From Patescibacteria group bacterium (GTDB lineage Bacteria > Patescibacteriota > Microgenomatia > JACPZF01), in assembly GCA_023484305.1 (NCBI GenBank), contig JAMDAL010000012.1:1-34597 (forward strand): a DNA stretch of 34,597 nucleotides, written 5' to 3'. Shown piece by piece: positions 8,902 to 34,163 of the stretch (position 1 is the stretch's first letter; every line of letters starts with the position of its first letter). The notes under the pieces are model-generated. The model was not told the origin of the DNA, did not search any database, and was given only the letters and a program-made list of their open reading frames with translations. The position numbers were made by a program, and so were the translations under genes.

Positions 8902-10053
8902 ATGGTTAAAAAATTTCTCGGTCTTTGGGACGGCAAAAAATACTATTTTATCGCAGGATTCGTTTTGGTTTTATTCGGGCTTTTGATGTTTTTTTTGTTG
9001 CGCCCGCCCCCGGCGCAAGAAGCCTACACGGTTAAAAGAGAAAATTTTAGCAACACGGTTTTGGCGGATGCAACCTATACGACTGCTTCCCAAACTTCAG
9101 TTTGGTCGCCAACCAACGGCACCTTGACAAAACTTTTTGTAGCAAACGGCCGGCAGGTTAAAAAAGGTGATCCTCTTTTTCATGTTGAAAGCAGCGCCAC
9201 TGACGAAGAAAAAAGAACTGCCTACGCTAACTATATGGCGGATAAGTCAACTTTAGATGCGGCTACGGCAGAACTTTACACCTTGCAATCAGATATGTAT
9301 GCGGCCTGGAAAACCTATACGGATCTGGCAAAAAATTCCACCTATCAAAATTCAGACGGGACGCCCAGAAACGATAACCGCGTTTTGACGGAGTTTACGA
9401 CAGCCCAGGATGACTGGCTGGCGGCAGAGGCTAATTTTAAAAATCAGCAGACTGTCATTGCCAAAGACCAAGCTGCAGTTGCCAAAACCTGGTTGCAAAA
9501 TGAGCAAACCCAAAGCGTTACAGTTAACAGTCCGGCTGCCGGAACCGTGACCAACCTTCTGTCTCAAGTTAATGACGAAGTGGCGGTTAAACCGGCTGAC
9601 CCGGTACTCTTAGTAGCCAATTTTCACGACCCATATCTTTTAGTATCTCTTAACGAAGTTAATATTCCCAAGGTTAAGGTTGGTCAAAAAGCGACAGTAG
9701 TGTTTGATGCTTTGCCTGACAAAACTTATCATGGAGAGGTGGAAACTCTGGATAATGTAGGAACCAAAGTTTTAGGGACAGTCACTTTTGACGCCAGAAT
9801 TAAGATTGTAGACGGTGATAACGAAATTAAGCCCAATATGACAGCTTCAATAACAATTACCACTTCCAACCGTCAAAATGTTTTAACCGTTCCCAACAGC
9901 GCTTTAACAGAGAAAAACGGACAGTATTATGTGCAAAAAGCTGGTTCTTCAGGCAATAACCTTACTCCGGTTAAAGTTGGTCTAAAAGGCTTGGTAAAAA
10001 GCGAAATAAGTTCTGGCTTAACAGAAGGCGAACAGATTCTGGTTCCCCGATAG
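8902..10053 (+). CDS. HlyD/MacA-family periplasmic adaptor (membrane fusion protein)
   Basis: 383 aa with an N-terminal TM anchor. It has a lipoyl-like hairpin (VKKGDPLFHVES ... SPAAGTVTNL), a coiled-coil middle and a beta-barrel C-terminus. FtsX permease and ABC ATPase genes follow it. Confidence 0.8.
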   Translation: MVKKFLGLWDGKKYYFIAGFVLVLFGLLMFFLLRPPPAQEAYTVKRENFSNTVLADATYTTASQTSVWSPTNGTLTKLFVANGRQVKKGDPLFHVESSATDEEKRTAYANYMADKSTLDAATAELYTLQSDMYAAWKTYTDLAKNSTYQNSDGTPRNDNRVLTEFTTAQDDWLAAEANFKNQQTVIAKDQAAVAKTWLQNEQTQSVTVNSPAAGTVTNLLSQVNDEVAVKPADPVLLVANFHDPYLLVSLNEVNIPKVKVGQKATVVFDALPDKTYHGEVETLDNVGTKVLGTVTFDARIKIVDGDNEIKPNMTASITITTSNRQNVLTVPNSALTEKNGQYYVQKAGSSGNNLTPVKVGLKGLVKSEISSGLTEGEQILVPR

Positions 10054-30251: not shown

Positions 30252-30327
30252 TGGGGTGGTGTACGGGAGTCGAACCCGCTAAAACTGCCTCCACAGGGCA
30301 GCGCCTGACCGTTTGGCATACACCACC
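30252..30327 (-). tRNA. tRNA-His (anticodon GTG) with genomically encoded G-1 and 3' CCA
   Basis: The manual cloverleaf has G-1 opposite C73 and an acceptor stem GTGGTGT/ACACCAC. The D stem is GCC(A)/(A)GGC. The anticodon stem CTGCC/GGCAG carries the loop CT-GTG-GA. The variable loop is TTTTA. The T arm is GCGGG-TTCGACT-CCCGT. The 3' end is C73-CCA. Confidence 0.9.
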
Positions 30328-30382
30328 AAAAAACCTCCCGTTCTTTGTCGATCATAAAAAATGATAAACAAGGAACGAGAGG
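30328..30382 (-). terminator. Intrinsic terminator of the T-box leader
   Basis: RNA sense: CCUCUCGUUCCUUG (30382-30369) pairs with CAAAGAACGGGAGG (30347-34), giving 12 Watson-Crick pairs, 1 G-U and 1 mismatch. An inner AUCAU/AUGAU extends the helix, and UUUUUU follows (30333-30328). The U-tract abuts G-1 of tRNA-His. Confidence 0.75.
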
Positions 30383-30600: not shown

Positions 30601-30607
30601 AAAAAGA

Positions 30608-34078: not shown

Positions 34079-34163
34079 GCCACGGTGCTGGAATGGTAGA
34101 CAGGCCAGTCTCAAAAACTGGTGGTGATAAAACACCGTGAGAGTTCGAGTCTCTCCCGTGGCA
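34079..34163 (+). tRNA. tRNA-Leu (anticodon CAA), long variable arm, CCA not encoded
   Basis: The acceptor stem is GCCACGG/CCGTGGC with A73. The anticodon stem CCAGT/ACTGG carries the loop CT-CAA-AA. The variable arm is GGTG-ATAAAA-CACC. The T arm is GAGAG-TTCGAGT-CTCTC. Confidence 0.9.

Follow-up and report, generated by a model that had tools for sequence, protein, structure and literature searches.

A putative histidine T-box with an ultrashort stem I precedes the gene of its own tRNA ligand in Patescibacteria

The leader, the tRNA-His gene and the genes downstream

The locus described here lies on the minus strand of the Patescibacteria contig JAMDAL010000012.1 (GCA_023484305.1), in a stretch of 34,597 nt that is called the window below. 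A leader of 270 nt is located downstream of a strong promoter-like site at 30637-30608 (TTGACA-18-TAATAT with a TG extension; 10/12 match in a consensus scan), from which its transcript is presumed to start at about position 30601. Local alignment with the Rfam RF00230 model defined a T-box-type leader at positions 30568-30368, which covered the model from end to end, albeit with a collapsed stem I. The sequence of this region contains an ultrashort stem I (30554-30538), in which the 5 bp formed by CUGGA and UCCAG close a 7-nt loop, GUCACGA, and this hairpin loop contains the histidine specifier CAC at 30547-30545, followed by the purine G. RNAalifold indicated the adjoining stem II (AGAGC/GCUCU with a CAAAAU loop, 30531-30516) and the stem IIA hairpin (ACGG..CCGU, 30515-30500), and inspection by eye suggested a IIA/B pseudoknot within 30531-30489, formed by the loop GUUG at 30509-30506 with CAAC at 30492-30489. 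The stem III hairpin, CUUAGAAG ... CUUCUAGG, was placed at 30443-30421 with the help of the Rfam alignment. The T-box sequence AGGAUGGGACCGCG at 30414-30401 aligns with aGGGUGGUACCGCG of the RF00230 model, and it opens the antiterminator predicted by the same alignment at 30414-30371, where AGGA, the bulge UGGGACC and GCGGGAGGU are followed by a loop and then by ACCUCUCGU and UCCU. The UGGG of this bulge (30410-30407) is complementary to the C73-C-C-A end of the adjacent tRNA-His.

Folding predicted an intrinsic terminator at 30382-30328, which consists of the hairpin CCUCUCGUUCCUUGU...ACAAAGAACGGGAGG at 30382-30334, with a 3′ arm that ends in CAAAGAACGGGAGG at 30334, and of a U6 tract at 30333-30328. 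The 5′ arm of the terminator (30382-30371) is the same segment as the 3′ strand of the antiterminator, and the two structures are mutually exclusive. The minimum free energy of the terminator region (30420-30322) was -38.4 kcal/mol, with a z value of -4.7 against shuffled sequences, and that of the terminator hairpin by itself was -24.6 kcal/mol. Hence, the T-box leader with a terminator that a sequence-only reading of this DNA had placed ahead of tRNA-His is present in its anatomy, though its stem I is atypical.

The U6 tract is followed directly by the encoded G-1 of tRNA-His at 30327; this junction, on which the sequence-only reading had built its proposal, is exact on the minus-strand sequence. 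ARAGORN called tRNA-His(gtg) at 30326-30252, and the Rfam tRNA model gave 47.1 bits over 30326-30255. The 5′ end of the tRNA at 30326 reads GTGGTGT..., and the 3′ strand of the acceptor stem, ACACCAC, is followed by C73 and then by CCA at 30254-30252, so that a G-1:C73 pair is possible and CCA is encoded. The gene thus has the GUG anticodon, the encoded G-1 opposite C73 and the cloverleaf of a bacterial-type tRNA-His. The same reading correctly distinguished this tRNA from tRNA-Leu(caa) at 34079-34163, the ...GUGGCA end of which is followed by CAAAAA, so that CCA is not encoded there.

A histidine-racemase-like gene (30204-29383), which encodes a two-Cys protein of the DapF fold with a CntK_N domain, starts 47 nt past the tRNA. 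Its product matched the NCBIfam models HisR (1e-29) and CntK (5e-20), in both cases under the curated cutoffs, and over its full length the histidine racemase in PDB entry 9cr6 (6e-18). In 29 homologues both catalytic cysteines, C66 and C202, are conserved without exception. Racemase-like genes of the CntK/HisR type are common in Patescibacteria (Paceibacteria, Roizman-, Woese-, Gottesman- and Levybacteria) and in Clostridia, and in some relatives the protein is fused to a GNAT acetyltransferase (P0014, P0022). The position of the gene under a histidine T-box supports a role in making L-histidine from D-histidine in an auxotrophic CPR cell. The next open reading frame (29376-27994) encodes 460 amino acids of no recognizable family, with no match in Pfam, NCBIfam or PDB sequence searches. 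It is syntenic in relatives, where tblastn detected homologues at the same operon position with 31% (L008) and 25% (L155) identity. It lies between the racemase-like gene and a 330-aa ORF (27949-26957) resembling M29 aminopeptidases and NicX (Peptidase_M29, 1.2e-4, which is under the cutoff; PF26233 NicX), and its product is a candidate histidine-salvage protein.

The last gene of the presumed operon is hisS (26826-25612), which encodes a histidine-tRNA ligase of 404 aa (TIGR00442, 336 bits versus a cutoff of 287) in the same orientation as the tRNA, in agreement with the sequence-only reading, which had assigned HisRS to the same unit. In a consensus scan of the minus strand no terminator was found between the tRNA and hisS (30250-25612), and promoter-like matches in this interval reached at most 9/12, at chance frequency. 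Between the aminopeptidase-like ORF and hisS, a gap of 130 nt contains a structured intergenic element at 26945-26885, which consists of nested inverted repeats, CCGATGTG...CACATCGG, that occur twice and have no U-run.

A leader family with a 4-6 bp stem I

The first anchor used in the search for related loci was the downstream racemase-like protein, with 185,579 species genomes searched. Only one of 80 loci (L008) contained the T-box/tRNA-His module, and because of this low yield the racemase-like gene was dropped as an anchor in favor of a leader-only DNA pattern. The racemase of L008 is 48% identical to that of the window, and the order of elements at this locus is a promoter, CUGAA-GUCACGA-UUCAG, a T-box core identical to that of the window, a terminator, a 7-nt spacer, G-1 and tRNA-His. 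Metagenome contigs were then scanned with the leader-only 18-mer GGAUGGGACCGCGGGAGG, chance matches in high-GC DNA were removed, and up to 13 kb of sequence was available per locus. With the window and L008 included, the family comprises 116 loci, which form 53 clusters at ≤85% leader similarity. The 18-mer pattern fixes the N position of UGGN, and the constancy of this position therefore carries no conservation signal.

Stem I has 4-6 bp in all members. Its loop contains GUCACG in 108 of the 109 members with enough upstream sequence, and it is closed by 31 different, fully complementary stems. When 32 dereplicated leaders were analyzed with RNAalifold, the antiterminator, stems I, II, IIA and III and a long-range helix were recovered. 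These helices were 86-100% paired, and most columns of the variable ones showed 2-6 pair types. The number of pair types per column was 3-4 in stem I and 3-6 in the helix at the position of stem III. Stems II and IIA were 100% paired, with 4 and 1-2 pair types per column, respectively, and the antiterminator consensus was 99% paired. Covariation of the pseudoknot (GUUG/CAAC, GUGA/UCAC and GUUU/AAAC) was seen by eye in the alignment. The terminator with its U-run is present in 50 of the 53 dereplicated members.

In the window leader a small hairpin, GGGACC-GCGGGA-GGUCCU followed by U6, is predicted by folding at 30409-30386, and it shares nucleotides with the T-box bulge that binds the acceptor end. 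It has counterparts at the same position in L008 and in family members L082-L201. All 53 of 53 dereplicated leaders contain such a proximal hairpin of 5-6 bp with a T-run of 5 or more, and its 3′ arm and T-run lie outside the search pattern that defined the family. This hairpin may be an additional, earlier terminator-like checkpoint, and its formation would require the absence of a bound tRNA 3′ end.

No T-box is called in the window at the Rfam gathering score. The local RF00230 search gave 35.9 bits, compared to a gathering score of 93 (E 2.4e-6, model positions 1-219 covered), which is explained by the replacement of 76 stem I model positions by 7 nt in the alignment, with 69 nt missing. 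Similarly, none of 18 relatives tested reached the gathering threshold. The reduction of stem I to a hairpin of merely 4-6 bp explains why the Rfam T-box model misses this family in Patescibacteria; neither the ultrashort stem I nor the membership in a CPR-wide family had been noticed in the sequence-only reading.

The remaining T-box features are present in the window leader. Its specifier is CAC followed by the purine G, with histidine genes downstream, but it is located in a terminal loop instead of an internal loop. The T-box bulge presents UGGG to C73-CCA, the antiterminator and the terminator exclude each other, and stem II is accompanied by the IIA/B pseudoknot, as judged by eye. The fourth UGGG pair is uncertain, because C73 is already paired to G-1 in mature tRNA-His, and the same pairing issue was raised by the authors of TBDB. 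The long stem I with a K-turn, an internal specifier loop and a distal interdigitated T-loop platform is absent from the leader; its stem I is of the ultrashort kind that has no elbow-binding motif. On the other side of the leader there is no SD-sequestering platform in the window, where a terminator hairpin, U6 and a tRNA gene are found with no SD or start codon. According to a 2020 review (PMC7583486), a long stem I that bears the distal elbow-binding motif is in general necessary for transcriptional T-boxes, and given this general requirement the lack of a long stem I counts against reading the leader as a transcriptional T-box. As judged from its predicted structure, the leader is nevertheless a genuine, if atypical, histidine T-box with a transcription terminator, and the alignments indicate that it is a member of a large family of Patescibacteria histidine T-boxes that standard annotation does not see.

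Two further features of the family were observed. In L086, L092, L095, L096, L137 and L189, two copies of the leader lie about 3.5 kb apart on opposite strands, as divergent pairs. The members of this subgroup are abundant and highly similar, have no terminator U-run, and contain a GGAGG SD in the 3′ arm, just ahead of the start codon of hisG-like or other ORFs, so that the CPR histidine T-box family seems to include translational versions. Additionally, short inserts with the motif CTGAGC-N3-8-TCGAAG are found repeatedly in hairpin loops of the leaders and in long terminator-tRNA spacers (L134, L155, L170, L173 and others), and these inserts could represent small mobile hairpins or modules similar to K-turns.

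Recurrence of tRNA-His behind the leader and its transcription

Within ~300 nt downstream of the box, 36 of the 116 loci (21 of the 53 clusters) have a tRNA gene in the same orientation. In all 36 of them it is tRNA-His(GUG) with both G-1 and C73 encoded, and the adjacency of leader and tRNA-His is far beyond chance. The layout that the sequence-only reading had noted in the window is found again at 35 further loci; a lack of the layout in all relatives, which that reading had named as weakening its case, is thus not observed. The T-box-linked genes comprise 32 distinct tRNA-His sequences (median pairwise identity 65%; 26 clusters when grouped at 85% identity), a diversity which argues that the juxtaposition does not come from one recent lineage. 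In 12 loci (6 clusters) G-1 follows the U-run without a spacer, in roughly another dozen loci 4-15 nt lie in between and in the others 29-139 nt, and the terminator hairpin with its U-run is kept in 36/36 tRNA-bearing loci. CCA is encoded in 13 of the 36 T-box-linked tRNA-His genes, and most of these genes have cloverleaf scores of 45-77 bits. The cargo past the tRNA is a racemase-like gene in the window, L008 and L106, hisG in six loci, or hisS, which follows either directly or after 1-3 ORFs. The tRNA gene is missing from 32 of the 53 leader clusters, and hence it is an optional module. A specific association of the tRNA with terminator-type leaders was considered, as suggested by the raw counts (36/36 versus 40/80), and rejected after dereplication (21/21 versus 29/32, p = 0.27).

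Some of the T-box-linked tRNAs deviate from the common form. In the window the tRNA has the unusual A8 U9 at positions 30319-30318, compared to the near-universal U8 A9 in 32 of the 36 T-box-linked genes. The same A8 U9 is seen in an independent Logan assembly (L001), in which the tRNA-His departs from that of the window by a single base in the variable loop. The Rfam score of the window tRNA, 47 bits, is at the low end of the set. In L162, the tRNA after the leader (9265-9347, 83 nt) scored 30.1 bits, which is barely at the Rfam threshold, and was missed by ARAGORN; this tRNA-His ahead of hisG may be interrupted or decaying.

The sequence-only reading had concluded that there is no room for a separate promoter ahead of the tRNA. 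As a statement about the window this was too strong, because a weak promoter-like match (TTGTTA-16-TATCAT, 9/12) is located inside the terminator at 30388-30361. The tRNA-His could thus be made mainly from its own constitutive promoter at this site, with the T-box just adding read-through for the protein genes and with the tight spacing reflecting genome compaction. A start at about 30354 would give an ordinary tRNA leader of ~27 nt lacking the terminator 5′ arm, and a constitutive source would also remove the difficulty of bootstrapping from a single tRNA-His gene. The match in the window is also the best of the 36 loci. However, it occurs at chance frequency (four promoter-like matches compared to 4.1 expected in shuffled sequences), and its -35 element is merely the conserved U-run of the antiterminator loop. 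The promoters upstream of the leaders in the family are near consensus, with a mean of 10.5 of 12.5 (range 10-12.5), and these high scores serve as a positive control for the promoter scan. In the interval between the box and the tRNA the best matches over the 36 loci ranged from 0 to 9, and the 35 relatives scored 0-8.5, none with a site comparable to that in the window. These scores do not exceed those of the same interval in tRNA-less leaders, which gave a mean of 7.9. Hence, no conserved promoter between the box and the tRNA was found among the 36 loci, and mainly independent transcription of the tRNA is unlikely.

An alternative is that the tRNA is co-transcribed for the sake of RNA processing, such that cleavage by RNase P and at the 3′ end severs the leader and sets mRNA stability, with tRNA-His itself coming from leak or from another gene copy and with no meaningful feedback on the tRNA level. 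Such a role would fit the optional nature of the tRNA, which is found in 21/53 clusters, and the varied genes that it precedes (hisG, hisS and racemase-like), and bacterial tRNA-mRNA co-transcripts, such as that of the E. coli tufB operon, are known to have processing roles. On the other hand, a processing handle could be any tRNA, whereas the cognate tRNA-His is found in 36/36 loci. These tRNAs also keep G-1, C73, GUG and a cloverleaf mostly of 45-77 bits; the retained identity elements and cloverleaf argue that they are working tRNA genes, the output of which must follow read-through. We regard a role in processing without feedback as quite improbable.

The notion that the leader is no functional T-box, a product of decay or chance whose hairpin and U6 serve as the terminator of the upstream ORF (31442-30639, same strand), draws on that gene and on an Rfam score far under the gathering threshold, but with a near-consensus promoter between the ORF and the leader, covariation in five helices of 32 dereplicated sequences, an invariant CAC and T-box sequence, and a family that sits ahead of hisS, hisG and other histidine genes, it has hardly any likelihood left, being effectively refuted by the stem covariation and the RNAalifold consensus.

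Thus, the tRNA-His is most likely the first product of a transcript that its own uncharged form would switch on, because the tRNA after the leader is always tRNA-His and because no conserved promoter separates the two. The strongest argument for placing the tRNA within the regulated transcript is that the T-box can reach the cargo genes solely by transcription through the tRNA gene.

The proposed circuit and its relation to known systems

We consider it likely that the locus encodes an atypical, transcription-attenuating histidine T-box, the transcript of which begins with the gene of its own ligand and continues with the racemase-like gene, the two ORFs and hisS. The co-transcription, tRNA-dependent read-through, RNase P processing and regulatory logic of this scheme are inferred from the sequence. 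Transcription would start from the strong promoter near 30637-30608. When no uncharged tRNA-His is available, the terminator hairpin at 30382-30334 with U6 would form and the RNA would stop just before G-1. An uncharged tRNA-His would place its GUG anticodon on CAC and its free CCA end on UGGG, which would favor the antiterminator at 30414-30371 and allow RNA polymerase to pass the U6 tract into the tRNA gene. RNase P would then cut between U(-2) and G-1, freeing the leader and a tRNA that already bears CCA, with G-1 remaining paired to C73. Retention of G-1 through the G-1:C73 pair at the RNase P cleavage step is established for E. coli tRNA-His. The downstream mRNA would yield the racemase-like enzyme, the two further proteins and HisRS, and in this way supply histidine-salvage enzymes.

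The outcome would be a tRNA-His that is positively autoregulated and produced in a fixed proportion to HisRS, with the charged tRNA providing negative feedback. The sequence-only reading had called this a feed-forward loop, a term that is imprecise; the circuit that it had in mind is better described as positive autoregulation by the ligand combined with negative feedback through HisRS and histidine supply. Because new tRNA-His is uncharged, its direct effect on the switch would be positive, while HisRS and histidine supply would close the negative loop. If this were the sole tRNA-His gene, no tRNA would mean no read-through and a tightly shut switch would stay off irreversibly, which is a weak point of the model; leaky termination or a second gene copy would therefore be needed, and basal read-through of the terminator would have to provide the seed supply of tRNA-His. 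It is about an even call whether the T-box-linked gene is the only tRNA-His gene in many Patescibacteria, so that a riboswitch without a long stem I gates its own ligand in a positive feedback that ties tRNA-His to HisRS and histidine supply, with the small proximal hairpin perhaps acting as a second checkpoint.

T-boxes are the textbook case of tRNA sensing by RNA, and the genes known to be under their control encode synthetases, biosynthetic enzymes and transporters. The window leader resembles the canonical transcriptional T-boxes (RF00230; Bacillus subtilis tyrS and glyQS) in the pairing of specifier codon with anticodon and of the UGGN bulge with NCCA, in the competition between antiterminator and terminator, in the U-run, and in the location upstream of aminoacyl-tRNA synthetase and amino-acid genes. 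It differs from them in a stem I that has 4-6 bp in its family, with the codon in the terminal loop and with no K-turn, internal specifier loop or elbow platform, in a score that stays below the Rfam gathering score, in having the cognate tRNA as the first gene, and in its origin from Patescibacteria and not Firmicutes. The E. coli thrU-tyrU-glyT-thrT-tufB operon likewise has tRNA genes at its 5′ end, which are followed by protein genes of the translation apparatus, and relies on RNase P and 3′ processing for tRNA release, but has no upstream riboswitch sensing the encoded tRNA. In the E. coli thrS operator and in ribosomal-protein leaders an operon product also binds its own 5′ leader; there a protein exerts negative feedback, whereas in the window the ligand would be an RNA with a positive direct effect.

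The stem I of the window leader resembles that of the actinobacterial ileS T-boxes, in which, as reportedly described by Sherwood, Grundy and Henkin in 2015, the specifier is in the terminal loop. These elements share with the window leader a short stem I, the lack of an elbow-binding motif and the retention of stems II and IIA/B (PMC7583486). They act translationally, through SD sequestration, and are specific for isoleucine (PMC7583486), while the window leader has an intrinsic terminator with U6, is specific for histidine and precedes a tRNA gene, which makes translational control meaningless for its first product. In a search of full-text literature, which included TBDB, PMC7583486 and Wels 2008 and had most subscription journals outside its scope, no description of a T-box ahead of a tRNA gene was found, nor was any paper linking T-boxes with Patescibacteria. 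Hence, a T-box that would gate its own ligand, in an unannotated transcriptional class with an ultrashort stem I that is widespread in CPR, is probably novel.

If the proposed circuit is correct, it would be the first riboswitch known to control the production of its own ligand, and it would raise questions about positive feedback, bootstrapping and the stoichiometry of tRNA and synthetase. It would also mean that attenuation of transcription is feasible with a 5-bp stem I, a point relevant to the current view, in which rapid tRNA capture by a stem I platform is essential for transcriptional T-boxes. Since neither Rfam nor annotation of the TBDB type captures the family, T-box regulation is under-counted in Patescibacteria. 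Genes related to histidine, among them uncharacterized ones like the 460-aa ORF, could also be recognized by the leader in front of them.

An association of tRNA-His with the racemase-like gene was also observed outside the leader family. In two other CPR genomes, tRNA-His lies beside or near a racemase-like gene with no T-box (L010, 5814-5887; L026, 5737-5811), with further cases in L019, L030 and L072, and in some Clostridia it is found within 1.5-5 kb of such a gene. This arrangement hints at an older linkage between tRNA-His and histidine racemase.
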